From: an uncultured Candidatus Rokubacteria bacterium
Lineage (GTDB): Bacteria > Methylomirabilota > Methylomirabilia > Rokubacteriales > DASRDR01
Length of the DNA: 64,000 nucleotides
Direction: 5' to 3'
NCBI GenBank assembly: GCA_963805625.1
Contig: CAWDVE010000012.1
Coordinates: 134,936 to 198,935, forward strand
Part shown: piece by piece, positions 4,141 through 48,938 of the stretch
Layout of the letters: each line of letters starts with the position of its first letter
Numbering within the stretch: position 1 is the first letter of the stretch
Translations under genes and position numbers: made by a program
Notes under the pieces: generated by a model
Database searches by the model: none
Told to the model about the DNA's origin: nothing
Seen by the model: the letters and a program-made list of their open reading frames with translations, nothing else

Positions 4141-5276
4141 ACAGCTGAGAACGAGCTTTATTGATCTTTGACTATGTAATGGATACACGACTCACGTCCA
4201 CGGCAGGTCCGATGCGAGGATGCAGGACCACAGGAGGTGCTGGGACCCATGGACCCGACGGAACGACCGCCGTAGGTGGGCATCCAATTGACGAAGGTGT
4301 TCCGGTGCGCCATTGGCCAAGTCATGCTTGAACTTGGTCCAGACGAACTCGTCGGGATTCAGCTCGGGGGCATAGGCCGGGAACCGATGCACGTGCAGCC
4401 GCGTGTGTCGGGTCAAGAACGCCGTGACGTCGGCGCGCCGGTGAATCATGCCACCATCCCAGAGCAGCTCGACCGGTCCGCGGAGGTGCCGCAGGAGGTG
4501 GCGCAGAAACACCACGACCTCCGCCCCGGTGATGTTCACGGGGTGGACGTGCATGTACAAGCCCAGGCGGGCGCGCTGGGGGGACACCGACAGGGCAGAA
4601 ATCGCCGACAGCTTGTCGCGCGTGTAGCTGTGGCGTACCCGCGGCGTACACCCCACCGGCGCCCAGGTCTTCCGCATGTTCGGGATCAACAGGAAGCCGC
4701 TTTCATCGAGAAACACGAGGTGGGCCCCACGTCGGGCGGCGTTTTTTTATATCCGGCCACGTGTGCGTCTTCCAGTGTTCGATGGCCGCCTCGTCCCGCT
4801 GGCGCGCGCGCCGTTCGGGTTTCTGCCAACTCCAATGCAGGCCGTGCCGCAAGAGCTTCCACACGCCGACCGGACTGTAGCGTACGTCGAACTCCGCCTC
4901 GATCAGCGTGCCGATGCGCTTGAGCGTCCACAACTCGGTCGTGTGTCCGGCGGCCCGCGCGCCTTGGAGCAGCAACCGCCGGAGGCGCGCCTTCTGGGTC
5001 TCCGTCAACCGGGGCGGGCGGCCCGGCGTGGGCCGGGCGCGTAATCCGTTCCGCCGGTCGCGCCGATACGCTTGCTTCCAGCGCACGACGGAGCTCACGG
5101 CCGCCCGGACCAAGCGGGCGACTTCGCGATATGGCGTGCCCACCCGCAGGAGCGCGATAGCCCGGCGTCGACGCTTTTCCAGTTGCTCGGCCGTGCCAGA
5201 AGGTCTCATGCCGATCAGCATAGTGAACCACAGGCTAACCGTATGCATTCTTTAGTAAATGGTCAATATGTCGACT
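4141..5276 (+). other. dif/Xer-like site 1, interrupted by IS630 and abutting IS110
   Basis: Restored ACAGCTGAGAA-CGAGCT-TTATGTCGACT (4141-4160 + 5269-5276); right arm 8/11 identical to E. coli XerD arm TTATGTTAAAT. Confidence 0.65.
4161..5266 (-). mobile_element. IS630 family element, copy A1 (two ORFs joined by -1 frameshift)
   Basis: HTH ORF 4703-5248 + DDE ORF 4192-4716 (FLDESG..LNPDE); A7C slippery site ~4741-4748; TA duplication; imperfect IRs TTGATCTTTGACTA/TAGTAAATGGTCAA. Confidence 0.95.
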
Positions 5277-5299
5277 TCTATGAAGCGGCCCCCCGTGTC

Positions 5300-5560
5300 A
5301 AGCGATAGCGGCGTGTGTGGTGTCCCTCTCGTCCTCCCGTCCTAGGTCAGCGGTCCACGGCGATGGGACCTACGGTTCCCGCGAGGTTCAGTCATCCTTC
5401 TATTCGCGCTCGTCAGGGGCGAGCGGGGCTCGCCGGCGCATGAGGGGAGTCGAAGGGTGGGGACGCCATCTATGCAACGGCGCTCGAACAGCGGCCAAGT
5501 CGACATACGCGCTCACCCACCCGTCGAACCTGCGCGAGACCGAGGTGCCGCTCATCTCAC
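5300..5560 (-). ncRNA. Putative bridge/seek RNA of the IS1111-type element (boundaries approximate)
   Basis: Stem GGGTGGG/CCCACCC encloses a loop with TATGTCGACT (5498-5507) matching the target; a second hairpin CGCTCG/CGAGCG lies next to ATAGAAG (5397-5403) matching the element end plus core. Confidence 0.7.
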
Positions 5561-5710
5561 CGACGCGGACTATGCCTGACTTCTCAGGGCTCGGAGCCTG
5601 ACTCGGGTGAATCGCGATCGCCCAGTGGGCCCAGGACGCGTCCGTTGACCTGGACCGCTATCTGGGTATTCCCGAAATCGGCTATTTTCGCGTTCGCCAT
5701 GCGCCGCCCG

Positions 5711-6754
5711 TCAGACGGGAGCAGCCGCCTCGGCCACGTGGCGCGGCACGACCCGTGGAGTATACGTCGTCCCGTCGCGCAGCATCGCGTAAAGGATGCC
5801 GGCCAGGCGACGGGCCAGCGCGACGACGGCGATCTTCTTGCCACGGCGCGTGGCGATGCCCATGGCCCACCGCCGCAAGGCGACCGTCCGGGGATCACGC
5901 AGGCGCAGGATCGACACGGCCGCCTGGACGAGCAACCAGCGCATCCGGGTATTGCCAGCCTTGGTGATCCGCCCGCGTCGTTGACTCTCCCCCGAGCTCA
6001 GCTCCCTCGGGACGAGGCCGAGATACGCTTCCACGTCATGCGCCCGGTGGAAACGCCCGGCGTCGTCGATCGTGGCCACGAAGGCCGCCGCGGTCACCGG
6101 TCCCACACTGGGGACTGTCCGCAGGCGCTGGACTCGCACATCTGGGCGCGTGACGGCCTCGATCACCTCGTCCGAGTAGGCGAGCTGCTGATTGACGGGC
6201 CGCATCACCGCCAGCAGGGGCGCCACCTCCGAGAGCAGGCGGCCCGGCAGCGGCAGCGCCACGACGCGCCGGATGAACGTGTCCGCGCTCCCCGTGGGCA
6301 CGCGCCACCCGTGGCGGCGCAGAAGAGCCCGGATCAGGGCGATGTAGCCGGTGCGCGTCCGAACCAAGGCATCGCGCACCGCCAGGCGCCCCCGCACATG
6401 CCGCTGCGCGTCCGAGAGCCGATGCGCCGGGCGGTACGCCCCCAGCAGGCAGGCCTCCGCCAGCGCCCGGGCATCCCGCCGATCGGTCTTGACCTTCCGG
6501 GTCCGCGTGGCAGACATCGGCGCGAAGTTCGGGTCCGCCACCACGACCTCGTGGCCCAAGGCCTCAAGGCAGCGCGCCACCCACTCGCTCTCCGTTGAGG
6601 CCTCGACGAGGATCCGGGCTCGCGGCCGGCCGCCCAGCACCTCCGCGAACCGCTCGGGCTCGGTGCGGATCCGGCATTCGCTCAATTGGCCCCCCTCGCG
6701 GAGGGTGCAGATCTGGCTTTCCTTCTTGTGCAGGTCGATGCCAACATAGTCCAT
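5711..6754 (-). CDS. IS110 DEDD recombinase/transposase
   Basis: MDYVGIDLHK, KTDRRDA, YLGLVPRELSSG...ITKAGN motifs. Confidence 0.95.
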   Translation of the reverse strand: MDYVGIDLHKKESQICTLREGGQLSECRIRTEPERFAEVLGGRPRARILVEASTESEWVARCLEALGHEVVVADPNFAPMSATRTRKVKTDRRDARALAEACLLGAYRPAHRLSDAQRHVRGRLAVRDALVRTRTGYIALIRALLRRHGWRVPTGSADTFIRRVVALPLPGRLLSEVAPLLAVMRPVNQQLAYSDEVIEAVTRPDVRVQRLRTVPSVGPVTAAAFVATIDDAGRFHRAHDVEAYLGLVPRELSSGESQRRGRITKAGNTRMRWLLVQAAVSILRLRDPRTVALRRWAMGIATRRGKKIAVVALARRLAGILYAMLRDGTTYTPRVVPRHVAEAAAPV

Positions 6755-6875
6755 GGCTGGCCCCCTCGTGCGCCCGTGAGCGCGTGTTCGCTCAGTGGGG
6801 CACTGTATGCCACCACGTCGAGCTGCGGGTCAGCCGCTTCATCCCATCTACCCACGTTCCCCGGGAGGTGTGCCC

Positions 6876-7334
6876 GTGCCAGTCGATCGCACGTATGCAA
6901 CTGAGAACGATGCACAGCGGGAGCGGCTTCGCGCCCTTGTCCGGAGCCTCGGCGACCAGGACCTCGCGCGCCCCATGGAGGCCGGCTGGACGGTGGCGGC
7001 AGTCCTCGCGCACGCCGCCTTCTGGGATCAGCGGATTGTCGTCCTGCTCGACCAGTGGGAGCAACGGGGCCCCTCGTGGACCCCGCCCCTCGAAGTGGAG
7101 CGCGATGGCGACTGGATCAACGATGCCGCGAAGGCGCTCTGCCTGGCCCTCCCGCCTCGCGTGGCGGCCGACCTCGCCGTCTCGGTCGCCGAGGCGGTGG
7201 ATCGGCGGGTGGCCGCGGTGAGCGACGCCATCATCGAGGCGAATGCGCGGGCCGGCTCTCCGCTCAACTGGCACCGCGCGGAACACCGGCGCGAGCACCT
7301 GGACGAGATCGAGCGAGCGCTCCGCGGCGCCTGA
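6876..7334 (+). CDS. DinB/mycothiol-dependent maleylpyruvate isomerase-like protein
   Basis: GWTVAAVLAHAAFWD...HRREHLDEI; GGAGG RBS before GTG. Confidence 0.8.
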   Translation: MPVDRTYATENDAQRERLRALVRSLGDQDLARPMEAGWTVAAVLAHAAFWDQRIVVLLDQWEQRGPSWTPPLEVERDGDWINDAAKALCLALPPRVAADLAVSVAEAVDRRVAAVSDAIIEANARAGSPLNWHRAEHRREHLDEIERALRGA

Positions 7335-7368
7335 TCCCCCGATGCGCTTCTCCGGGCCCCCGGGGGAA

Positions 7369-8470
7369 ACAGCTGAGAACGAGCTCTACTAGTCAGTCCG
7401 ACACTTGGCGCATGAAAGAAGGAGCGAACCAGGCCGGTCGCGCTTGAATACCCGCCAGATCCACCTGGACGCGGCTTCGAAGCGATTCGTCTTTCCGCAA
7501 CGGGGTCTTGCTGACGCCTTGGCGCTTGAGGTGGTTCCAGACGAACTCGTCGGGGTTCAACTCCGGCGCATAGCCGGGCAGGAAATGCAGCTCGAGGCGA
7601 CCGGCAAGCTGCTGGACGTACTGCGCGGCTACGTTGGCGATGTGCGCGGGGTGGCCGTCGAGGACGAGGAACACGGCGCGCTTGCGCCCGCGCATGAAGT
7701 GCGTCAGCAACTCGACGAACCGTGGGGCGTTGAGCCGTTCGGTGTAGATCTCGTACCAGAAGGCGCCGCGGGCGTTGACGGCGGAGATGGCGCTCACGCT
7801 CTGGCGCCGGCCGCTCGTGGGGACCTCGGGCGTCTGCCCCCGCAGACCCCACGTCCGCCCGAGGACTTGGTCGGAACGGACCCCGGCCTCATCGAGGAAG
7901 AAGATCTTCGCGCCGACGCGCTTGGCCCGCGCGCGCAGGCGGGGGAACACCGCCGTTTTCCAGTGCTCGATCGCCACGGGATCGCGCTCGTAGGCGCGGC
8001 GCAACGGTTTCTGGGGCGTGATGTCCAACTCGGTGAGGAGGCGACCGACGGCGGTCACGCCCAGCCGCACGCCGAACTTCTGTGCGATCAGCGCCGCTAC
8101 AATCTGCCGAGTCCAGAGGCCAAAGTCGAAGCCGTACTGGCGCGGGTCCTTGCCATTGATCCATCGCCGGACCTGGAGCTTCTGGCGCGGCGTCAGGGCC
8201 GGCTGCCGCCCCGGATGTGTTCGCGCGGTGAGCGCCGCTGGGCCGCGTCGCCGCACCGCGGTCAGCCATTTGTAGATCGTGGTGCGACACAACCCATAGC
8301 CTTTGATGACGTCGCTCGGCGCTTCGCCTTCCTGCACGCGCCGCACGGCCATGCGCCGGATTGTCTCGGAGGTCTCGTGCGACAGGGTCCGCCCGTCGAT
8401 CCGCATAACCCTTCATATCACAATCCGAGCGCAGTGTAGCCTAAAGACAGGACTGGTTAGTATGTCGACT
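7369..8470 (+). other. dif/Xer-like site 2, interrupted by IS630
   Basis: Restored ACAGCTGAGAA-CGAGCT-CTATGTCGACT; same spacer as site 1. Confidence 0.65.
7389..8460 (-). mobile_element. IS630 family element B (single ORF 7393-8406)
   Basis: FFLDEAG...LDGHPAH...PELNPDE; IRs CTAGTCAGTCC/GGACTGGTTAG; TA duplication at 7387-88 and 8461-62. Confidence 0.95.
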
Positions 8471-8480
8471 ACCCCCAAGC

Positions 8481-8685: not shown

Positions 8686-8730
8686 TGGCGCGCCTGGAGG
8701 GAATCGAACCCCCGACCCACGGCTTAGAAG
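8686..8730. repeat. att site: 45-bp duplicate of the tRNA-Arg 3' half
   Basis: TGGCGCGCCTGG...GGCTTAGAAG identical to 24600-24644; identity ends at the anticodon loop. Confidence 0.95.
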
Positions 8731-8918
8731 TGCGGGAAGGGGTTCCACGACCGCACGGGACCAAGTGCGACGGGGTATGACTGGACAAGGAGTTGCGTCG
8801 AATTCTGACAATACCGATGGTGACCGGACCGTACCTATTTCGACGCTGAACCGGCACTACGACCGGCACCGGCAGTCGCGCCAGGATAGGCGCATATGCC
8901 GCTGATCGAGGCCCCCCA

Positions 8919-12475: not shown

Positions 12476-12627
12476 TTAGCGGATGGGCCCCGTGGACGAA
12501 ACCATGGGGCTCGGTCCTTGCATAGTCTCGCTCTTCGTGGATAGCGCGCGTTCCTCATAGCCTGCTGCGGCCATAGTGCATTCACATCAACGGGATGATG
12601 TGCCCGCACCGGCCGCTTGGGGGGAGC

Positions 12628-13179
12628 ATGAAACTGATAGCGACAATCGGACTCCTAGTCGTGATCCTCGTCCCCGGCGTAGCGCACGCGACTCCGCTCG
12701 TCGCCACGTGGGGATGGATCGGACTCTATGGGGTCGACACATGGGCCGACTTCGGCGGAGAAGAATTCTCCGTGTTCGTCTCCCAACCAAGTTCGTTTAT
12801 AAGCAACCCTTTCACGATCGCGATAGGCATGAACGGGATGGATGGAGATGGCGGACTCATTCATTTGTATTTCGGGTGGGGTGAGGTATACGGGGCGATC
12901 TGCTCCTCGTACGCGTTGGGGATCGGCGAGACATGCGGTTCGATGACGCTCGCGTATGATCCTCTCGCGACCCTGCCGGCGCCGTTCACCCTGACGGGGC
13001 ATTTGAACGTCGGCGATGGGTTTGACTTTGTGGGACAGGGCACGGTCCGTGCCGGAACGCCAAACCCATACCCATGGTTGCGGTACACAGTACCCGAGCC
13101 CTCGACGCTGCTCTTGGTCATCGCGTCGCTCGGCGCGCTCGGCGCGCTTCACGGCACTCGACGAGGTGCATCGCGGTGA
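12628..13179 (+). CDS. PEP-CTERM sorting domain protein
   Basis: Signal peptide; C-terminal VPEPSTLLL-TM-RR. Confidence 0.9.
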   Translation: MKLIATIGLLVVILVPGVAHATPLVATWGWIGLYGVDTWADFGGEEFSVFVSQPSSFISNPFTIAIGMNGMDGDGGLIHLYFGWGEVYGAICSSYALGIGETCGSMTLAYDPLATLPAPFTLTGHLNVGDGFDFVGQGTVRAGTPNPYPWLRYTVPEPSTLLLVIASLGALGALHGTRRGASR

Positions 13180-13210
13180 CGGCAGCAGCCCACTGTGGGA
13201 GGTGTGTCCG

Positions 13211-13828
13211 ATGAAGCTCATAGCCACGATCGGGCTCCTGATTGTGATCCTCGTCCCCGGCGTAACCCACGCGACGCTCGTTGTCACGGAAGGAAAGGTA
13301 AGCCTGGAAGTGACAGACAGCCTTGCCATCTTTGGCGACAACCTTTCGGGAGATTGGGAGGATGGGTGGTGGGGCGTGGAGCTGTCCTGGCCCTATCAGC
13401 AACCAGCGGACGACGGGACGCTGACGATGCAGATCCAGGGCAACGCCAGCGCCTGGGTCGATGGGACCGGGTGCTCCGCCGTACGGTTCCCGGGAGGCCC
13501 CCTCCCCGAGCCCGCCCCCTCCTGCGGCGTGTTCACGCTGACGCCGGCGCCGCCACCTGTCGAGAGCTTGCCCGTGCCATTCACCGCTACTGGGCATCTG
13601 AACGTCGGCGACGGCTTCGACTTTGTCGGCCAGGGCGTGATCGAGCGTGGTTGCCTGCTACCCCTGGGATGCACCCCCGGACCAGGACGTCCACTCTGGG
13701 TATATAGGTTCACCGTGCCCGAGCCCTCGACCCTCCTGTTGCTCGGAACGTCGCTCGGAGCACTCGCGATTCTTCAGCGACGAAAGAGAGCAGCACGGTC
13801 TCATTCATCGCCTCAACCTGATCGCTGA
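13211..13828 (+). CDS. PEP-CTERM sorting domain protein (paralog)
   Basis: Near-identical signal peptide; shared TGHLNVGDGFDFVGQG; VPEPSTLLL-TM-RRKR. Confidence 0.9.
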   Translation: MKLIATIGLLIVILVPGVTHATLVVTEGKVSLEVTDSLAIFGDNLSGDWEDGWWGVELSWPYQQPADDGTLTMQIQGNASAWVDGTGCSAVRFPGGPLPEPAPSCGVFTLTPAPPPVESLPVPFTATGHLNVGDGFDFVGQGVIERGCLLPLGCTPGPGRPLWVYRFTVPEPSTLLLLGTSLGALAILQRRKRAARSHSSPQPDR

Positions 13829-23111: not shown

Positions 23112-23222
23112 CGCCCCGCCAGCAGCGGCTCCTGAGTGGCGCTAGGAGCCCGTAGGAGCCGCCTTCTCCCCCTGAGCCATGGCGCGGGGCCGCCCCCGAT
23201 GGGGCCCCGCGTCTCAGGGGAC

Positions 23223-23251
23223 TTGTGTACTGGTATATGATACGATACCAT
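23223..23251 (+). promoter_or_regulatory. Promoter/operator of XRE-integrase
   Basis: TTGTGT-17-TACCAT with inverted TGGTAT/ATACCA; equivalent TTGCGC-17-TACCAT in island 2. Confidence 0.6.
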
Positions 23252-23260
23252 ATGCGACAG

Positions 23261-23476
23261 ATGATCCTCCTTCGCTACTGGCGGGAGCGGCGAGGCTACT
23301 CGGTGCGCGGGCTGGCGAAGGTGGCCGGCGTGGGTTACGTCAGCATCGTGCGGATCGAGAACGGCCACATGAGCCCGACCGTCGCCATGCTGGAGAAGCT
23401 GGCCGAGGCGCTGGGGATCAGCGTGCGCGATTTCTTCCCGGTGGAGAAGCCTACTGGCAAGAGGAGGGCACAGTGA
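23261..23476 (+). CDS. XRE-family HTH regulator
   Basis: LRYWRERRGYSVRGLA...RIENGHMSPTVAMLEKLA. Confidence 0.9.
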   Translation: MILLRYWRERRGYSVRGLAKVAGVGYVSIVRIENGHMSPTVAMLEKLAEALGISVRDFFPVEKPTGKRRAQ

Positions 23477-24564
23477 TGAAGCGGGGTCGGAAGGTGCGAG
23501 GCGTATTTCTGCGAGAGGGGCAGTGGTGGATTCGCTATGCGTGCACGCTCGGGCACGATCATCGGAAGCCTAGTGGCGACCTGAAGACCGCAGCAACCGA
23601 GGAACACAAGGCCAAGCGCGCAGAGATGCGCGAAGCGCGCAAGGCAGGGCGCGAGTGCTGCCCCCGACTGGTGCAACGGGAGCGCCCGGTGCTGTTCGAT
23701 CAGATCGTGGACGACTACATGGAGTACAGCGAGCGTAGCAAGCGCTCGTACCGGGACGACAAGTTTCGCAAGGCCAGGCTCGTGGCATCGTTCGGTGGCC
23801 GGCTTGCCAGTGACATTCGCGCCAAGGATGTCGAGGACTTCAAGGCGGCGCTTGCCGAATCCCGCAAGGTGGCGACCGTGAATCACCATCTCAAGCTGCT
23901 GAAGGCCGTCTTCAACCGAGCGATCCGGCAGGGCCGACTCACCTTCAACCCAGTCACCGCCGTCAAGCTCTTCCAGGAGCACAATGCTCGCAACCGGTGC
24001 CTCAGTCGTGAGGAGGAGGGTCGGCTCCTGAAGGCCCTCCCGGAGCGGCTTCGCCCGCTCGTGGCAGTCGCGCTCAACACGGGGATGCGCCGGGGCGAAC
24101 TCCAGGCGCTCCGTTGGTCGGATGTGGACTTCGCCACCGGAACGCTCCATATCCGTCGCGACAAGGCCGGCGAGGGCCGCTGGGTCGCCTTGAACAGCGC
24201 GGCCCGAGATGCCCTCCTGGCCGTCAAACGGGAGCAGAAGGTGCTCGGCTCCTACGTGTTCTGCTCCCCGGAAGGTCGGTTCCTCCACAACCTGGAGCGT
24301 GACTGGCGGCCCGCCCTGGAGACGGCGAAGATCCCGGACTTCCGATTCCACGACTGCCGGCACACGTTCGCGTCCCGATTGGCCATGACTCCAGGCGTCG
24401 ACCTGTACACGGTCCAGCGAGCGGGAGGGTGGAAGAGTCAGGCCATGGTGCAGCGGTACGCCCACCTCAGCCCCGACTACGTGAGGGCCGCCGTCGAGCG
24501 GATGGCCAGGGGTGAATCCGAGGGTGGAACCGGCACGAAAACCGGCACTGGGCAGCCCGCCTGA
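23476..24564 (+). CDS. Tyrosine integrase
   Basis: TGMRRGEL, HDCRHTFASRL, MVQRYAH; adjacent to tRNA. Confidence 0.95.
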   Translation: MKRGRKVRGVFLREGQWWIRYACTLGHDHRKPSGDLKTAATEEHKAKRAEMREARKAGRECCPRLVQRERPVLFDQIVDDYMEYSERSKRSYRDDKFRKARLVASFGGRLASDIRAKDVEDFKAALAESRKVATVNHHLKLLKAVFNRAIRQGRLTFNPVTAVKLFQEHNARNRCLSREEEGRLLKALPERLRPLVAVALNTGMRRGELQALRWSDVDFATGTLHIRRDKAGEGRWVALNSAARDALLAVKREQKVLGSYVFCSPEGRFLHNLERDWRPALETAKIPDFRFHDCRHTFASRLAMTPGVDLYTVQRAGGWKSQAMVQRYAHLSPDYVRAAVERMARGESEGGTGTKTGTGQPA

Positions 24565-31454: not shown

Positions 31455-31508
31455 TTAGTTCTCGGTATGTTCGGCGCACTCGGTTATCCCGTTACATACA
31501 ACAAAATA

Positions 31509-32614
31509 TTGATCTTTGACTATGTAATGGATACACGACTCACGTCCACGGCAGGTCCGATGCGAGGATGCAGGACCACAGGAGGTGCTGGGACCCATGG
31601 ACCCGACGGAACGACCGCCGTAGGTGGGCATCCAATTGACGAAAGTGTTCCGGTGCGCCATTGGCCAAGTCATGCTTGAACTTGGTCCAGACGAACTCGT
31701 CGGGATTCAGCTCGGGGGCATAGGCCGGGAACCGATGCACGTGCAGCCGCGTGTGTCGGGTCAAGAACGCCGTGACGTCGGCGCGCCGGTGAATCATGCC
31801 ACCATCCCAGAGCAGCTCGACCGGTCCGCGGAGGTGCCGCAGGAGGTGGCGCAGAAACACCACGACCTCCGCCCCGGTGATGTTCACGGGGTGGACGTGC
31901 ATGTACAAGCCCAGGCGGGCGCGCTGGGGGGACACCGACAGGGCAGAAATCGCCGACAGCTTGTCGCGCGTGTAGCTGTGGCGTACCCGCGGCGTACACC
32001 CCACCGGCGCCCAGGTCTTCCGCATGTTCGGGATCAACAGGAAGCCGCTTTCATCGAGAAACACGAGGTGGGCCCCACGTCGGGCGGCGTTTTTTTATAT
32101 CCGGCCACGTGTGCGTCTTCCAGTGTTCGATGGCCGCCTCGTCCCGCTGGCGCGCGCGCCGTTCGGGTTTCTGCCAACTCCAATGCAGGCCGTGCCGCAA
32201 GAGCTTCCACACGCCGACCGGACTGTAGCGTACGTCGAACTCCGCCTCGATCAGCGTGCCGATGCGCTTGAGCGTCCACAACTCGGTCGTGTGTCCGGCG
32301 GCCCGCGCGCCTTGGAGCAGCAACCGCCGGAGGCGCGCCTTCTGGGTCTCCGTCAACCGGGGCGGGCGGCCCGGCGTGGGCCGGGCGCGTAATCCGTTCC
32401 GCCGGTCGCGCCGATACGCTTGCTTCCAGCGCACGACGGAGCTCACGGCCGCCCGGACCAAGCGGGCGACTTCGCGATATGGCGTGCCCACCCGCAGGAG
32501 CGCGATAGCCCGGCGTCGACGCTTTTCCAGTTGCTCGGCCGTGCCAGAAGGTCTCATGCCGATCAGCATAGTGAACCACAGGCTAACCGTATGCATTCTT
32601 TAGTAAATGGTCAA
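31509..32614 (-). mobile_element. IS630 element, copy A2 (near-identical to 4161-5266)
   Basis: Same 1106-bp element, TA duplication, one visible SNP. Confidence 0.95.
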
Positions 32615-32619
32615 TAACG

Positions 32620-39454: not shown

Positions 39455-39925
39455 TCACCGGGTCCGCTCGCGGAGCGCCCGCTGAACCTCGCGCTGCTCC
39501 TCACGCTCGCGGATCGCGTGCCGCTTGTCCAGGGTCTTCCGGCCCCGGGCGAGCCCGATCTCGACCTTGGCGCGGCCTCGCTTGAAGTATAGGCGCAGGG
39601 GTACGAGGGTCAACCCCTTCTCCATGATCTTCCCGAGCAGTCGGTTGAGCTCCCCGCGATGGAGCAGGAGCTTCCGGGGCCGGAGCGGGTCGTGATTGGC
39701 CCGATTGCCCTGGGCGTAGGGGCTGATGTGGAGCCCGAGGAGCCAGGCCTCGTTCCCGTCGATCCGGGCGTACGACTCCTTCAGGTCCGCGCGACTGGCC
39801 CGGAGCGATTTGACCTCGGTCCCCTGGAGGACGAGGCCCGCCTCGTGGGTCTCGAGGATGTCGAAGTTGTGATACGCGCGTCGATTCGACGCGACGAGCT
39901 TCTCGCCGGCGTCGGGCTGCCTCAC
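39455..39925 (-). CDS. smpB: SsrA-binding protein
   Basis: NRRAYH, GTEVKSLR, RKLLLH, DKR. Confidence 0.97.
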   Translation of the reverse strand: MRQPDAGEKLVASNRRAYHNFDILETHEAGLVLQGTEVKSLRASRADLKESYARIDGNEAWLLGLHISPYAQGNRANHDPLRPRKLLLHRGELNRLLGKIMEKGLTLVPLRLYFKRGRAKVEIGLARGRKTLDKRHAIREREEQREVQRALRERTR

Positions 39926-39988
39926 GTCAGCGGTTCCTCGTCTTGACGGGCTTCGGACCCGGTGATAGCGTTATCGCCGCTCGACAGC

Positions 39989-40075
39989 GCCGAAGTGGCG
40001 GAATTGGCAGACGCGCTAGATTCAGGGTCTAGTGCCCGCAAGGGTGTGGGGGTTCGAGTCCCCCCTTCGGCACCA
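39989..40075 (+). tRNA. tRNA-Leu(CAG)
   Basis: CTAGA-TTCAGGG-TCTAG, long variable arm, CCA. Confidence 0.97.
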
Positions 40076-40091
40076 TCGAATTCTCGCATAC

Positions 40092-41241
40092 TTAGCCCGC
40101 AGTAGCTACAGCACGCTCGCGGTTCGTCGCTTGGCCGGTGCCACTCTGAGTGCCACTTGGCTGAATGCCGGTCCGCTCCAGCCGTTCCCCCCGGGCCAGG
40201 GCCTCTACCGCCTCCCGCTTGTGTCCAGCCGCCACGTGAGCGTACCGCTCGACCATGGCGAGGCCGCCCTTTGCCCCCCATCCCCCCAGGTCGCGGACGG
40301 TCAGCAGGTCCACCCCGGCCATGACCAGGCGCGAGGCAAAGGTGTGGCGGAGGGTGTGGAGCGTTACCCTGCCAGGCAGCTTCGCCTCCGTCGCCCACGC
40401 CGGGAAGCGATGGGTCACCTTCCGGCAGTCGGGGAAGATCAGAGGGCTGCCCAGGTGACGCGGGACACGCTCCAGCGCACTCAGCACCAGGCTCGATAGC
40501 TCGATGTGCCGGGGCCTCCCGCTCTTGGATGTGGGCAGCGTTAGCATCCCCCGCTTCGCGTCCACCTGGTCCCACCGGGCGGCCAGCAACTCTCCCCGGC
40601 GAGCCCCCGTGTAGAGTGCGACCTTGCAGAAGGCCCGATAGGGCTCCGGTATCACACTAAACAACTGGCCCTCTTCCTCGGCCGTCAGCCACCGGGTCCG
40701 CGTGTTCTCCTCGCGGAAGAGTCCCACGACAGACACGGGATTCCGACCGGCGAAGGCCCCCCGCCTGATGACCCGGTTAAACAGGTGGCGCAGACAGGCC
40801 AGGTGGCGATTGACGGTCGCCTTGGTCCGCTCCTCGGCCAAGGACTGCTTGAACCGTTCGACCGCCTCCCGGGGTGATTTCCGCCAGCGTCTTACCGGCG
40901 AACACGAGCTTGAGGCGATTGAGCCAATGTTCGTCGGTCTGGTGGCTCTTCTTGTGAGCCTCGCTCCACTCCTGGTATTCCTTCGCCGCGTCCTCGAAGA
41001 GCAGCGGCTTCGCGCTCCTGTCCAAGCGGGGACAGTAGTCCTTGCGCCGGACCTGCAGCCGCAGGCGGTGATGCTCCTCGATGGCTAAGCTCTTCGGCCC
41101 GACCTTCTCCCGGTGGCGGTGCCCGAGCGCACACTTGTCGGACACCCACCAGTCACCCAGGATGCCCCCAAGGAGTCGCTGGCTACCTCGCGGGTGGGGT
41201 CGGAAGAGCACGCCTCGGCGCTTACCGGGTGCCTCGCGCAT
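40092..41241 (-). pseudogene. Tyrosine integrase, frameshifted near 40870
   Basis: TGARRGEL, HTLRHTFASRL, MVERYAH; N-terminus in another frame. Confidence 0.88.
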
Positions 41242-41452
41242 GTTGGCCTCCTGTGCCTCTCGGTCGGTTGGGCGGGAAGAAATCGCGCACACCAATCCCT
41301 AGGGCATTTGCGAGCTTCTCCAGCATTGCCACGGTGGGGGACAGACGCCCCATCTCGATGCGGACCACAGTCACGTAGGACACTCCGGCCCGTTCAGCCA
41401 GGCCCCGGACTGAATAGCCCCGTCGCTCCCGCCAGTGGCGAAGGAGAATCAT
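41222..41452 (-). CDS. XRE-family HTH regulator
   Basis: Close paralog of 23261-23476. Confidence 0.9.
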   Translation of the reverse strand: MILLRHWRERRGYSVRGLAERAGVSYVTVVRIEMGRLSPTVAMLEKLANALGIGVRDFFPPNRPRGTGGQHARGTR

Positions 41453-43449: not shown

Positions 43450-44671
43450 TAAAATGCGCTCGGTTGATTAGCCGCGGTCCGCACGACGCTTAACGACCGG
43501 AGGCCCGTCTTGCCGCGTCCGATACGGGTGGCGCGGCAGTCGTGGGTGGGGCTCCTGCGCAAGGGGCGGCGCGTGCTCGTGGACGCGGTGGCCCAGGTCG
43601 ATGGCCCGCGCGCCGCCACGCTGCGGGCGCAGTTCGTGCCGCCCGCCGAGGAGGCCGAACCGCGGGACGACGGCGCGCTGCCGCGCGAGAGCGAACGGAC
43701 GGCGGCGCTGGTAGCGGCGGTGGCCGACGTGGCGGACGCGGCAGTCCAGGCGCGGGTGGCCCAAGTGCAGACGCTCCTCCGCGGCGAGGGCGATCGAGTG
43801 GTGAGCTTCGACGATCCGGACGCGCGGGGGGGGTATAAGGCGGCGGACAAGCCCTTCCTGGGGGACAAGGCGCACGAGAGTCTGGATCCGGACAGCCGCC
43901 TGATCACCGCGGTGGACGTGGTCCCAGGGAATGCGAACGAGGCCGTGCGCACGGACACGGTGCTGGCCAGCGAACCGACGCCTCGCACGCCGGGGGCGGT
44001 GATCATCGGCGACGGGCTGTACTCCAACGCGACCACCGTCGCGCAAGTCGAGCAGGCCGGGGGCCGCCCCTGTTTCAGCGGGCTGAAGGCCGAGCGCGTG
44101 AGCGATGCCTTCACCAACCGGGCCGAGACGGACCAGATGGAGTGCCCGGAGGGGAAGCGGTCGGTGGGCAAGGTCCGGGTGACGCAGGGCGATCTCTATT
44201 ACTTCTCGATGCGGGACTGCGGACCGTGTCCCCGGGCGGTCACGTGCCTGACCCGCGGGGAGCAGGTGGGGCGAGCGAAACGGCGCCGGCGCGTGTATCT
44301 GTCCGACGTGCGCAAGGCGCGGGTCGTGGCGGGTGAGGCGGGCCGGGTGTGGCGGAAGACGCACGCGAAGCTGCGGCCCCGAATCGAAGCGAAGTTCGAC
44401 GAGCAGATGAACCGGCATGGGCTTCGCCACGCGCGCTACTGGGGCCTGGCCAAGGTCACCGCCCAGGTCCTGCTCAACGCCCTCACGGTCAACGCCAAGC
44501 GGGCGGTCAAGCTCCTGGCGCGCCGCCCTCAACCGCCCGATCCGGTCCCGATCCTGGCGTAAAGGCGCGAGCGCAGACACGGAGCCGACGGAGCGCGCCA
44601 GGCCGAAGCCCAGGGGCGGACCCGTCGCCGCGGGAATGCGCCCGTCCCGGCCGCACTTTGTCAGCGGCCTC
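43450..44671 (+). mobile_element. 5'-truncated IS1182-like transposase (43510-44562)
   Basis: VSFDDPDAR, CPEG..CxxC, RIEAKF..HGLRHARYWG. Confidence 0.7.
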
Positions 44672-44682
44672 CGGTGCCGTTC

Positions 44683-44712
44683 TTGACACCGTCCGCGCCG
44701 GCCGCGCACCAT
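44683..44712 (+). promoter_or_regulatory. Putative promoter upstream of dif-like site 3
   Basis: TTGACA-18-CACCAT. Confidence 0.55.
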
Positions 44713-44761
44713 CGAGGTCGAGTGGGTCAGGGCGGCCTTCGTCCGCCAGCCCCCGGGGGAA

Positions 44762-44789
44762 ACGGCCGAGAAGAGCCACTAGGTCGACT
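44762..44789 (+). other. dif/Xer-like site 3 (uninterrupted)
   Basis: ACGGCCGAGAA-GAGCCA-CTAGGTCGACT with the GGGGAA and ACCC flanks of sites 1 and 2. Confidence 0.65.
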
Positions 44790-44927
44790 ACCCTCCCGGC
44801 CCGGACCGCTGGAGGGTAACGCTCCAGTGACGAGCTGGGTCACGCTGCGCTGTCTCTGGAAAGGAGCGACCGCTCGCGAGGCCGTCCGAAGCGTGGAGGC
44901 ACGCTCTGGTGCTGTAGAGTTGGAAGC

Positions 44928-46393
44928 ATGGAGCCGGGGGAGCCTTCGCGCGGCTGCTTCTCCTGCGACCTTTCCGGGCCCGGAAGGGACCTCTCGCACT
45001 TCTGGGAGCACGTGATTGGCAGCGACCACGCCCCGGTCGCGCTGCGGGCCGACTGGCAGGCCCAGCTCCGGCGGTGCCGGCGCGAGTTGGGCCTGTGCGC
45101 GGTGCGCTTTCACGGGCTGTCGGCACGTTCATCGTCCACGACCAGGCGCCACTCTATTCGTTCTTCAACGCCGACCAGATCGTGGACTTCCTGCTCTCGA
45201 TCGGCATGCGGCCCTTCGTGGAGTTGAGCTTCATGCCCGCGGCCCTCGCGTCGGGCGACAGGACCGTCTTCCGCTATCGCGGCAACGTCACCCCACCCAT
45301 CGACTACGGAGCGTGGGGGGAGCTCGTCCGCGGGCTCGTCGCCCACTGGAAGCAACGCTACGGAACCGAGGAGGTGGAGCGCTGGCACTTCGAGGTCTGG
45401 AATGAGCCTAACCTCGAGGACTTCTGGGCAGGGACGCAGCAGGACTACTGGCGGCTGTATCGCCACGCGGCGCAGGCCGTCAAGTCGGTCGATCCCTCGT
45501 TCCGAGTCGGTGGGCCGGCCACGGCCAGGAACGAGTGGATCGCCGAGTTCCTCGACTTCTGCGAGCGGGAGGCCGTGCCCGCGGACTTCGTCAGCACCCA
45601 TCACTACCCCACCGACGCGCTCGGGAACGAGAAGGACGACACCGAGAGCCCGCTTTCGCAGGGTCGCCGCGGCCTTCTCCGCGACCAGGCGCGCAGAGCG
45701 CGCCAGGAGGCGGGCCAGCGGCCGCTCCTGTACACCGAGTGGAACACCTCCTCGAACCCGCGCGACCGCCTCCATGACCAGCCCTACGCCGCGGCCTTCA
45801 TCGTCAAGACCGTGATGGAGATGAGCGGGCTGGTCGAGAGCTACGGCTTCTGGACCTTCACCGACCTGTTCGCCGAGAACTACTTCCCCTCGGTTCCCTT
45901 CCACGGAGGCTTCGGCCTCCTCAACCTCCACGGGATCGCGAAGCCCTCCTACCGTGCCTTCGAGCTGCTGCACCGGCTCGGTCGCCGCGAGCTGCGCGTC
46001 GAGGGCGCTCATCCGACGGTGGACGTCTGGGTCGTGCGCAAGGGCCAAGCGCTCACCGTGCTGCTCACCAACCACGCTCTGCCCCGCCACTCGATCGCGA
46101 CCGAGTCGATCGAGGTCCGGCTGGGGAACGCGCCCGCGCCGCACGGGGCGCGGATCGAACGGATCGACGAAGACCACGCCAATGCCAGGGTCGAGTGGCT
46201 CCACATGGGGAGCCCCGAATACCTTCGGCGCGCGGACATCGAGCGCTTGCAGGAGGCCTCGGTAATGACGACGCAGAGCTGTCCGCTCAGCTACGCCGAT
46301 GGCACGATCGTCTTGCGGGTCGAGCTTCCGCCGCACGCCGTGGCCGCGGTCACGCTGGAGCTGGCCGCCGGCGTTAGGAGAGCGAGACGGTGA
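44928..46393 (+). pseudogene. GH39 beta-xylosidase, frameshifted near 45120
   Basis: VRFHGL | ..RPFVELSFMP, FEVWNEPN, YTEWN. Confidence 0.85.
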
Positions 46394-47703
46394 GGATCTC
46401 GCGCTCAGACCAGCGCTACCTCGACAAGCTGCAGCGCGACACATTCCAGTACTTCTGGAAGGAAGCCGATCCTCGAAGCGGCCTTGTGCCCGACAACACG
46501 AGCAAGGGTGCGCCCTCGAGCATCGCGGCCGTGGGACTGGCTCTCGCCACCTACACGGTCGGTGTCGAACGTCATTGCATCAGCCGCAAGCAGGGCATCG
46601 AGCGGACGCTGGCGACTCTGCGCTTCTTCGTCGAGAGTCCCCAAGGGCCTCAGGCCGACGCCACCGGCTACAGGGGCTTCTACTACCATTTCCTCGACAT
46701 GCGGAGCGGACGCAGGGTGTGGAAGTGCGAGCTGTCCACGATCGACACCACGATCCTGCTCGCCGGCGGGCTCACCGCGGCTCGGTACTTCGACCGGCCG
46801 GCCGCCGCGGAGCGGGCCATCCGCGACCTGGCCGAAGAGCTGTACCGGCGCGCCGACTGGTCGTGGGCGCTCAATGGTGGACCCACGGTCTCGCACGGGT
46901 GGCGACCGGAGAGAGGGTTCATCCGTTACCGGTGGCAGGGCTACAATGAAGCGCTGATCCTGTACGTCCTGGGTCTGGGCTCGCCGACGCACCCCTTGCC
47001 CGAATCGAGCTATCCCGCCTGGACGTCGACGTACGTCTGGAAGAGGGTCTACGGACACGAGTACCTCTACGGCGCGCCGCTCTTCATCCATCAGTTGTCG
47101 CATCTCTGGCTCGACCTCCGCGGGATCCAGGACGATTACATGCGCCGCAGGGACAGCGACTACTTCGTCAACAGCCGCCGAGCGACTCACGTGCAGCAGC
47201 AGTACGCGGTCCGCAACCCCAGGAAGTTCGAGGGCTACAGCGCCTGTTCGTGGGGGTTCACGGCCAGCGATGGGCCCGGTCCGGCACGCCGCCGCATCCG
47301 CGGCGTGGCGCGCCTCTTCCACGCCTACAAGGCCCGCGGCGTGCCCTGGGGCCCCGACGACGGGACGCTGGCTCCGTGGGCGGCGGCGGCCTCGCTGCCG
47401 TTCGTACCGGACGTCGTCCTGTCCACGCTGCGCTACTTCGACGAGGCCTTTCCCGAGATGGTCAGCCGGTACGGCTTCAAGTGCAGCTTCAATCCTACGT
47501 TTCCCGCACGGACGGCCAAGGGCTGGATTTCGAAAGGCTACTACGGCCTCGACCAGGGCCCGGTCGTCCTCATGATCGAGAACCAGCGCTCGGAGCTGAT
47601 CTGGCGGCTCATGCGCGGGTGTCCGCACGTCGTGAGGGGGCTGCAACGGGCGGGGTTCGACGGAGGCTGGCTGGCCGCCACGACCCCGAGGTTGGCATCA
47701 TAG
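46390..47703 (+). CDS. Glucoamylase-like/GH144 family glycosidase
   Basis: SSIAAVG, GFYYHFLD, GYNEA, DQGP. Confidence 0.85.
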   Translation: MRISRSDQRYLDKLQRDTFQYFWKEADPRSGLVPDNTSKGAPSSIAAVGLALATYTVGVERHCISRKQGIERTLATLRFFVESPQGPQADATGYRGFYYHFLDMRSGRRVWKCELSTIDTTILLAGGLTAARYFDRPAAAERAIRDLAEELYRRADWSWALNGGPTVSHGWRPERGFIRYRWQGYNEALILYVLGLGSPTHPLPESSYPAWTSTYVWKRVYGHEYLYGAPLFIHQLSHLWLDLRGIQDDYMRRRDSDYFVNSRRATHVQQQYAVRNPRKFEGYSACSWGFTASDGPGPARRRIRGVARLFHAYKARGVPWGPDDGTLAPWAAAASLPFVPDVVLSTLRYFDEAFPEMVSRYGFKCSFNPTFPARTAKGWISKGYYGLDQGPVVLMIENQRSELIWRLMRGCPHVVRGLQRAGFDGGWLAATTPRLAS

Positions 47704-47755
47704 GCCGGACCACCGGCCACAGGTGCTAACATCCGCCCCTTGGGGAACGGGGGAA

Positions 47756-47783
47756 ACGGCCGAGAAGGCTCCATACGAGGAGC
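47756..47783 (+). other. dif/Xer-like half site 4 fused to yihY sequence
   Basis: GGGGGAA-ACGGCCGAGAA then degenerate GGCTCC-ATACGAGGAGC. Confidence 0.55.
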
Positions 47784-47968
47784 CGATGCTGGCCCGGCCG
47801 AGGTATAGGCCGATCAAGACGCCGAAGAGCAGTGACGTGATGACCGCCCCGACCCATACGTCCGGCCAGTCGAGCCGAACATCGGGCAGGACCCGATACA
47901 CCATCGCGATCAGAACCGAGATCACGAGCAACGAGACGAGTAAGTTCAGGATCTGCCACACTGTGCCA
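47767..47968 (-). pseudogene. YihY/BrkB family internal fragment
   Basis: YRVLPDVRLDWPDVWVGAVITSLLF...SSYGA, cut at site 4. Confidence 0.75.
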
Positions 47969-48021
47969 CCGCCCGGGTTCGCTGCCGGCCGAGACCTGGT
48001 GTCGCCGAGAGGAGATCGCCG

Positions 48022-48636
48022 ATGAAGAAGTATGTGCTGCCTGACCTGGCATACGAGTACTCCGCACTGGAGCCGCACTACGCCGCGCGGCCGCTCGAGG
48101 TGCATCATCGCAAGCATCACGCGGCGTACGTCGCTGGCGCGAACACGACGCTCGAGAAGCTCGCGACGGCCCGTGAGCGCCGGAATTTCGAAGCGATCAA
48201 CCAGCTGCAGAAGAGTCTCGCCTTTCATGTCTCCGGGCACGTGCTGCACTCACTCTTCTGGCGCAACATGAGCCCGCACGGTGGTGGGCAGCCCGGGGGC
48301 GAGGTGACCGCCGCCATCCAAGAGTCGTTCGGTTCGTTCGACGCCCTCAAGAGCCAGCTGACCGAAGCGGCGCTCAACGTTCAAGGCTCCGGCTGGGGGG
48401 CCCTGGCGTGGGAGCCCGTCGGTCAGCGCTTGGTCGTGGAGCAGGTCTACGACCACCAAGGCAATATCGGCAACGGCACGGTGCCGCTGCTCGTGCTCGA
48501 CATGTGGGAACATGCCTACTACCTGCAGTATCAACACGCGAAGGGCGATTGGGTCACGGCCTTCTGGAAGGTGGTCAATTGGGAGGACGTCGCGCAGCGC
48601 TTTCAGAAGGTGCGCACACTGGACCTCGGGCTGTAG
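48022..48636 (+). CDS. Fe/Mn superoxide dismutase
   Basis: LPDLAYEYSALEP, HHRKHH, DMWEHAYY. Confidence 0.95.
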   Translation: MKKYVLPDLAYEYSALEPHYAARPLEVHHRKHHAAYVAGANTTLEKLATARERRNFEAINQLQKSLAFHVSGHVLHSLFWRNMSPHGGGQPGGEVTAAIQESFGSFDALKSQLTEAALNVQGSGWGALAWEPVGQRLVVEQVYDHQGNIGNGTVPLLVLDMWEHAYYLQYQHAKGDWVTAFWKVVNWEDVAQRFQKVRTLDLGL

Positions 48637-48938
48637 CCTGGTTCCCCGGGCGCCGGCTCGCTTTGGTAGCGACTTCAGCGGGTGGGAGGGATCGGCCGCC
48701 ACGTCGCCCTCAGGCGTGGGTTCCGAGGCTCTAGCGGTTCAACCGAGGCAGTGGGCGAGTACATTAGTCAGAGAAAGCACTCTCCGACATGCGGCGGCTC
48801 TACCGTCTGGGCTACGAGGCGGCGTTCCGCCTGCGCGTGAATACCCCGCCGTTCGACGAGGCGCGCTCGGTCCTCCGGGACCGGCACGGGACGGCTGTCG
48901 CCCCGCCTTGAATCACGGGCGGCCCGACGAGCCGTCGC

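Follow-up and report, generated by a model that had tools for sequence, protein, structure and literature searches.

The window analysed here is the whole stretch of 64,000 nt of Candidatus Rokubacteria DNA (GCA_963805625.1, contig CAWDVE010000012.1, positions 134,936-198,935). It belongs to a 7.27-Mb assembly, called G000 below; fetched loci, genomes and sequencing-run contigs carry the letters L, G and X, respectively. Judged from its ends and its gene, the IS1111-group IS110 element at 5277-6849 is intact, and it is the sole full copy in the assembly (Table 1). The recombinase, which scored 248.5 bits against NF033542 (cut-off 140) and can be aligned to the IS621 recombinase, joins a DEDD RuvC-like domain to a Tnp20 domain with the G--P----SG motif of the IS1111 group. 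The gene is followed by the long non-coding region expected for the group (434 nt on the 3' side), in which two segments match the target, the complement of the top strand coming first, an order described for IS1111 seekRNAs in PMC11187229. The subterminal repeats form a perfect 10-bp pair, leaving the short terminal extensions (7 and 3 nt) characteristic of the group. Among the PDB matches, only IS621 and ISCro4 were represented, with no solved structure for the IS1111 subfamily.

Table 1. Features of the IS1111 element and of the related sites in the window (window positions)
Feature	Position	Strand	Remarks
Site 1, left part	4141..4160	+	11-bp left arm, 6-bp spacer and start of right arm; end of a truncated ISCR ori region
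IS630 element at TA of site 1	4161..5266	-	Likely later than IS1111
Site 1, right arm and CT core (long-guide target)	5267..5276	+	Exact TATGTCGACT
IS1111-group IS110 element, 1573 bp	5277..6849	-	CT core counted at 6848-6849; the other CT (5275-5276) is target
Subterminal inverted repeat	5280..5289	+	3 nt inside right end; kept in homologues
TTGACA, predicted -35 box of circle-junction promoter	5296..5301	-	
Predicted bridge/seekRNA core	5389..5527	-	Target-binding loop, then donor-binding module
Predicted donor guide ATAGAAG (RDG)	5397..5403	-	Matches right end and core
Handshake-like ATGG after RTG	5469-5466	-	Complementary to the element's own left end
Predicted short target guide (RTG), GCAT+AG	5470..5475	-	Programmed for CT-ATGC
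Predicted long target guide (LTG, IS621 convention), 8 nt and core	5498..5507	-	Covariation
DEDD recombinase, 347 aa	5711..6754	-	Pfam PF01548+PF02371; D7, E51, D91, D94; S254 in GLVP...SSG motif
Subterminal inverted repeat	6833..6842	+	7 nt inside left end; kept in homologues
Terminal 6 nt of putative ori end, ACCCAC	6850..6855	+	Cut off from the remainder by IS1111
DinB-family gene unit between sites 1 and 2	6870..7334	+	
Site 2, left part	7369..7388	+	Split by IS630
Second, different IS630	7389-8460		Splits site 2 at TA
Site 2, right part and terminus	8461..8476	+	Perfect long-guide match, TATGTCGACT at 8461-8470
Site 3, apparent intact ori-end remnant	44762..44795	+	Ori-region DNA upstream
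Site 4, left arm only	47756..47766	+	

An earlier note, made from the letters of the window, had placed the insertion at a CT, and the element ends and CT core are as it described them. The empty allele with a single CT was found in a contig of run X2, where positions 4161 and 6848 are joined across five letters (a single contig, in which the shorter side of the joint has 40 bases); this is a site free of both IS1111 and IS630. The relative G146 (L181) likewise holds an empty site with a single CT, together with the same DinB unit. Since the empty alleles have one CT, the insertion of IS1111 adds no bases beyond the core. A joint of 4158 to 5267, free of IS630 and retaining IS1111, was seen in X1 and in X4 (one contig each; across the joint contigs the shorter side has 27-40 bases), and for this reason IS1111 likely entered an intact site that IS630 split later at a TA. 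Targeting of the sites by IS630 was rejected, because second copies of both IS630 elements lie at unrelated TA sites. The IS630 at 4161-5266 has split ORFs, suggesting a programmed frameshift, and its second copy lies at about 31507-32616. In 55 of 66 homologues the predicted -35 box TTGACA begins at the same distance, 25 nt, from the right end; across a circle junction it would stand 17 nt from GAAGAT, a spacing that the earlier note had given correctly; as a -10 box GAAGAT is weak, matching at 3 of 6 bases. No circle junction was among the joints listed for eight runs, which were available as contigs; the three RNA runs were also contigs, mostly of relatives at 85-95% identity.

A tRNA-like remnant after site 2 (8686-8760), a phage-type integrase (23179-24564) and smpB beside a second, apparently split, integrase (39458-41295) mark a region rich in islands and insertion sequences (ISAzo13, IS481-like, IS1380-like, IS256, IS5/IS1182-like). 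The window also encodes two tandem small PEP-CTERM proteins (12595-13828).

Guide slots of the predicted RNA

The exact TATGTCGACT occurs in the window at 5267-5276 (+), 5498-5507 (-) and 8461-8470 (+), with a one-mismatch copy at 44780. Such a window-wide count is weak alone (4 matches against 1.32 expected, with 4 reached in 7 of 100 shuffles); the expectation of an exact 10-mer within the 434-nt non-coding end is about 9e-5 under an order-3 Markov model. The family was sampled through 156 homologous loci and the window, the right end being found in 101 and both ends in 85 (near-duplicates: L033/L034, L296/L299 and L297/L298), and across the homologues the 10-mer occupies a constant position within a conserved scaffold. 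With one locus taken for each distinct guide (41 loci), the long guide matched its own flank at 4.71 of 7 positions, compared with 2.34 after permutation (0/5000), a score lowered by several rows of that guide set being read out of register. The short guide matched the other flank at 2.85 of 4 positions against 1.57 permuted (0/5000; 34 pairs). Within the clade of at least 72% identity (49 distinct pairs, one locus unparsed), the long-guide figures were 6.33 of 8 and 4.92 (0/5000); all these permutation figures overstate independence, since the homologues are kin. Among the 42 TATGT-type guides of that clade, 39 are at TATGT-type sites and three at non-matching flanks, while all seven other guides lie at other sites. 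The slot of the donor guide tracks the right end, with a match of the terminal 4-mer in 85 of 86 loci and in four variants. This covariation argues that the 10-nt match is a genuine guide slot. For a left donor guide, only a match of 6 of 7 bases without covariation was found, and CCCATC at about 5363-5368 was rejected as a donor guide because it is not conserved. The handshake-like segment is named after the concept introduced for IS621 (PMC11208158).

In the consensus fold of 31 sequences, the internal loop stays open between GCGC and GGCC stems, and 6 of 19 pairs show compensatory changes. The single-sequence minimum-energy fold pairs both guide strands shut and is no better than that of shuffles (z -0.98), and an Rfam scan of the RNA region gave no significant family. 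Much of what had been proposed for this region was borne out: the exact 10-mer does lie in the non-coding end, ATAGAAG (5403-5397, -) matches the donor end and core and covaries with the right end, and the identification as an IS1111-type bridge/seekRNA recombinase with a guide matching its target has been strengthened by the family tests and by the proposed alignment and folding of homologous non-coding ends, in which covariation was seen. The remark that only TAG matches on the opposite side was also correct, because the short guide GCAT+AG agrees with the flank ACCC of the window copy at 2 of 4 bases. Of the two stems described around the 10-mer, both are present, GGGTGGG/CCCACCC as an outer stem; CGCT/AGCG, however, is an apical hairpin of the window copy, the loop of the family being closed by GCGC and GGCC. 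The note would have given up guide-directed insertion if other copies lay at sites lacking the 10-mer, and this was found in part: L082 has the identical long guide and a site with two mismatches, yet still in an ISCR ori end.

The clade comprises about 50 elements in records labelled Rokubacteria, Myxococcota, Chloroflexota, Planctomycetota and Deferrimicrobiota, the close relatives of the window element being labelled Candidatus Rokubacteria. Reprogrammed branches are scattered over a quick tree, and since this is unrooted no order of target switches is claimed. Two further branches were observed. One, at 57-65% identity and mostly in Gemmatimonadota records, shares the RNA scaffold and has attC-like targets (eight loci: L109, L126, L128, L130, L142, L145, L147 and L148), and the other, acidobacterial (L112, L115, L116, L125, L131, L132, L133 and L143), has a different core dinucleotide and covarying guides.

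The repeated target and its dif-like layout

By its position and its similarity to annotated ends, the repeated target of the IS1111 element is the ori end of ISCR/IS91-like rolling-circle elements. The DNA upstream of the sites holds the C-terminus of an ISCR-type transposase. In L254, the transposase is intact (491 aa, PF04986/PF14319) and 41-44% identical to those of ISCR1 and ISVsa3, and a site with the exact 10-mer lies 265 nt after its stop; the site is placed in the same way, some 230-300 nt behind a co-oriented Y2/HUH transposase, in L257, L262, L250 and L249. Of 70 flanks upstream of the site at IS1111 insertions, nine had matches to IS91-like transposases (8 of them co-oriented), compared with none of 69 control flanks, the nine including the near-duplicates L033/L034 and L082, whose match is its own locus; many genome-wide matches of the L256 query in this search were ABC-protein artefacts and were ignored. 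Starting from the other side, 36 ISCR loci were fetched; the C-terminus was covered in 25 of them, and in 20 the DNA downstream was long enough. A matrix built from 35 IS1111 targets only had its best match +290 to +400 behind residue 469 in 15 of these 20 3' regions (10 of 14 from Rokubacteriales and 5 of 6 from plasmids), and in the remaining five the motif was just outside the range (two), absent (two) or in a region cut by IS256 (one). Where ISCR1 and ISVsa3 are annotated (L295, L296 and L299), the matches coincide in register with their ends, and the best antisense score was 2.5. The 'reprogrammed' guides of L006, L085, L104 and L141 are also found downstream of ISCR-type transposase ends. 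These results, together with the dozens of relatives whose insertions were mapped as the earlier note had advised, do not support its suggestion that the element is programmed against Xer-like sites. In L278, the ISCR ori region downstream of the transposase contains an IS1111-like terminal repeat, but not at the usual position.

With the site itself excluded, DNA of the ori region was detected upstream of 21 of 49 targets and of 2 of 39 controls, the other 28 targets having none detectable. Among the 16 sites of G000 it was found at five, including window site 1, and at none of the other 11. Site 1 has no ISCR transposase beside it; it is a remnant whose left half was displaced from the right half by IS630, and over 37 nt the DNA upstream of it shares 81% identity with the ori region of the intact ISCR-like L265. 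Conservation of the targets reaches 6 nt past the CT (+7 included), beyond the 4-nt guide, and ends sharply. Since it stops six bases past the CT, as the ISCR1 and ISVsa3 ends do, the IS would insert 6 bp inside the terminus, and from this conservation and homology we infer the ori terminus of the Rokubacterial elements. The distances are in line with the 232 bp given for the oriIS region of ISCR1 in PMC6218425; transposition of ISCR elements is itself described as unproven in PMC13393415. That the site is present in many copies, as had been supposed, agrees with 23 matches in G000 against 1 in the reversed-genome control, and with 5 to 12 pattern matches per genome in four genomes of the same genus and none in controls. 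Integron attC was rejected as the target: no attC-like hairpin was found in seven site regions (z -2.1 to +1.2) in which ends of the form RYYYAAC...GTTRRRY were sought.

The target has an 11-6-11 layout with XerC- and XerD-like arms, compared here with the XerD consensus as printed in PMC10132070. The likely chromosomal dif of the host lies on contig C10 (379406-379427, -), at the switch of KOPS polarity (375.5-379.9 kb), and is found once in 8 of 9 genomes of the same family, 8 of the 9 having its unusual TTCTG start of the right arm; it differs from the long guide at 2 of 10 bases. Chromosomal dif was rejected as the target, because the sites are multi-copy and the likely dif lies elsewhere. 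Site 1 agrees with this likely dif at 6 of 11 and 9 of 11 bases in the two arms, and the L272 ori end agrees with the ACTTCCGATAA-type left arm of the relatives' dif at 10 of 11. Among the 44 TATGT-type targets with full context, another dif-like motif lies 50-75 nt upstream in 17, in most cases at -63. This second motif (L017, L020, L039, L046, L053, L268, L274, L284 and others) is more canonical, often has a 7-nt spacer and belongs to the ori region of one ISCR lineage. Candidates for XerD and XerC are encoded in G000 (C10:422222-423463 and 550739-551977, respectively). A dedicated tyrosine recombinase was sought beside the arrays and found at 3 of 38 loci, in no fixed position; the 1.5 kb upstream of 26 sites contained none. 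Replichore polarity of the sites was dropped as an argument, most strong sites of G000 pointing one way relative to KOPS, those of G146:C5 the opposite way and the arrays of G152 and G146 both ways. The resemblance of the sites to dif is real; their role as XerCD substrates is putative.

Short remnants of ori ends also flank single genes (DinB, RibD-like, amidase, SDR) in several Rokubacterial genomes, G000 and its relatives, forming arrays (L189:11708-12900, L243, L244, L245, L246 and window 4141-8476) in which adjacent sites are mostly direct repeats, with a few inverted neighbours (L052, L153 and L244). The inversely oriented flanks that mark xrs/pdif modules are thus not found here as a rule. 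A copy of the DinB unit at 96.9% lies in G146 between two intact sites, with neighbours that differ from those in G000. In L083, the left part of site 1 of the window is continuous with the DNA that lies behind site 2. In both cases the breakpoints fall within the motif. Such breakpoints show exchange at the site, with which either HUH nicking or XerCD would be compatible. A 4.2-kb GH39/glucoamylase/SOD block (about 44668-48841) has a 99.5% duplicate on contig C10, the window contig being C12, and was rejected as a site-bounded mobile module because sites 3 and 4 do not bound it.

Competing explanations

A standard IS1111 cycle, aimed by RNA at the oriIS ends of ISCR/IS91-like elements and their remnants, very probably accounts for these observations. 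The element boundaries, the empty site, the covariation of guide and flank and the identity of the targets as ISCR ori ends can be read from the DNA itself; the circle, the promoter, the RNA and the catalysis are modelled on what is known of the IS1111 family. The element would excise as a circle, whose junction would form the TTGACA-17-GAAGAT promoter, and the 3' non-coding region would give an RNA whose target loop pairs 8 nt and CT of one strand and 4 nt and CT of the other, a second module reading the right donor end. A DEDD/serine tetramer would swap strands at the CT, placing the element 6 bp inside the ori terminus. The insertion would likely inactivate or alter the ori end, the IS gaining a multi-copy safe haven in accessory DNA, and by changes of guide the clade has probably tracked different ISCR lineages. 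Because the target across dozens of relatives is the ori end of ISCR/IS91-like elements, it is these that the element likely parasitises, rather than the chromosomal dif.

As an extension compatible with this cycle, it is possible, if rather unlikely, that the ori end of ISCR-like elements also is, or contains, a working XerCD site, at which the host's XerCD moves gene units in and out between direct repeats of the end while IS1111 rides along with these cassettes. The 11-6-11 layout, the arm matches of site 1 and L272 to dif, the second upstream motif, the direct-repeat arrays, the changed neighbours of the DinB unit with breakpoints inside the site, and the XerC and XerD candidates with no dedicated tyrosine recombinase beside the sites would all suit such a role. 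Conservation, however, runs 6 nt past the 28-mer and, on its upstream side, continues into ori DNA, while the flanks of dif are described as variable in PMC2731167; the ends of ISCR1, ISVsa3 and ISCR3-like elements resemble the XerD arm only in the inner TTAT/TTGA; site orientation is inconsistent relative to replication; the pdif modules of Acinetobacter are flanked by inverted, not direct, sites; and HUH nicking inside the motif would give such breakpoints too. That the sites are stand-alone dif-like (xrs) sequences unrelated to ISCR, with an IS that hunts dif like the ISAjo2/ISAba32 group, is very improbable despite the strong dif resemblance, the multiple copies and the lack of an adjacent ISCR transposase at most window sites. 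It is largely refuted by the fixed distance of the motif behind ISCR transposases and its alignment with the ISCR1 and ISVsa3 ends, and guides without dif resemblance land at ISCR ends too; moreover, none of the 43 reconstructed targets was recognised as a chromosomal-type dif (L024, which has a GATAA left arm, is not assigned to a chromosome). Scarcely credible is a 10-nt match that arose by chance or as a scar, with targeting directed by protein: the weak short-guide match of the window copy and the single-sequence fold that closes the loop would fit it, but they have to be set against covariation in three separate slots, the low expectation of the match and the RNA guidance reported for four IS1111 members in PMC11187229.

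Beyond the RNA-aimed IS1111 cycle at ISCR ends, a wider idea, which we regard as quite doubtful, is that ISCR ori ends are disguised Xer-type sites that seed XerCD-shuffled cassette arrays in Rokubacteria and other soil bacteria, and that a multi-phylum IS1111 clade chased them by reprogramming its guides as the ISCR elements diversified. If true, the guides would map functional ori ends and offer a handle on how ISCR elements move genes.

Relation to known systems

The origin end of rolling-circle ISCR elements would constitute a new class of target for RNA-guided IS110/IS1111 recombinases. The boundaries and mobility of ISCR elements are still debated in PMC9376610 and PMC13393415, and the guides and insertion points given here may define the ori terminus to the base while exposing an overlooked dif-like layout. 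The clade also provides a small, ready-made set of IS1111 guides reprogrammed in nature, in which the target, donor and handshake slots covary. In the largely open full-text literature covered, we found no report of an IS1111 element aimed at ISCR ori ends, nor of an IS1111/IS110 element targeting dif, pdif, XerC or Xer sites; in the supplements of PMC11208160, the rows listed with the 10-mer were only IS110 donor or alignment rows.

The elements ISEc11, ISKpn4 and ISPa11, described with seekRNA or bridge RNA in PMC11187229 and PMC11208160, resemble the window element in several respects: a protein of 330-350 aa with DEDD and Tnp20 domains, subterminal repeats set 7 and 3 nt in from the termini, a long non-coding region on the 3' side with two target guides in the order usual for IS1111, a junction promoter (predicted here) and insertion without extra bases. 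The window element differs in that its closest plasmid-borne relatives are less than 40% identical and that it has no Rfam model. IS1111 elements that target Tn21 repeats, attC or REP have been described (PMC11187229, PMC5034289), and ISCR ori ends are not among the target classes that we found described. IS4321/IS5075, at the inverted repeats of Tn21, and the IS1111-attC elements ISKpn4, ISPst6 and ISPa25 are likewise programmed to enter another mobile element at its end or recombination site, but the victim here is apparently a rolling-circle HUH element rather than a Tn3-family repeat or an integron cassette site. The ISAjo2/ISAba32 group of the IS1202 family also inserts repeatedly at dif-like sites in one orientation, with a 5-bp duplication, 5 bp from the XerC arm and by a mechanism given as unknown in PMC10132070 and bioRxiv 10.1101/2022.12.17.520857; unlike these, the window element has a predicted RNA guide, lies at the outer edge of the other arm and occupies an ISCR end. 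With the oriIS ends of ISCR1 and ISVsa3 (ISCR2-type), described in PMC6218425 and PMC13393415, the target aligns in register, some 230-280 nt behind a 41-44% identical transposase, whereas the Rokubacterial ends have arms far more dif-like and are found as short remnants that lack a transposase and flank single genes. Finally, the + strand layout equals that of IS621 in PMC11208158, with a CT core, a long LTG, a short RTG, handshake bases and an RDG, but the predicted RNA of the window element lies in the right end, its gene runs in the opposite sense and it has no clear left donor guide.
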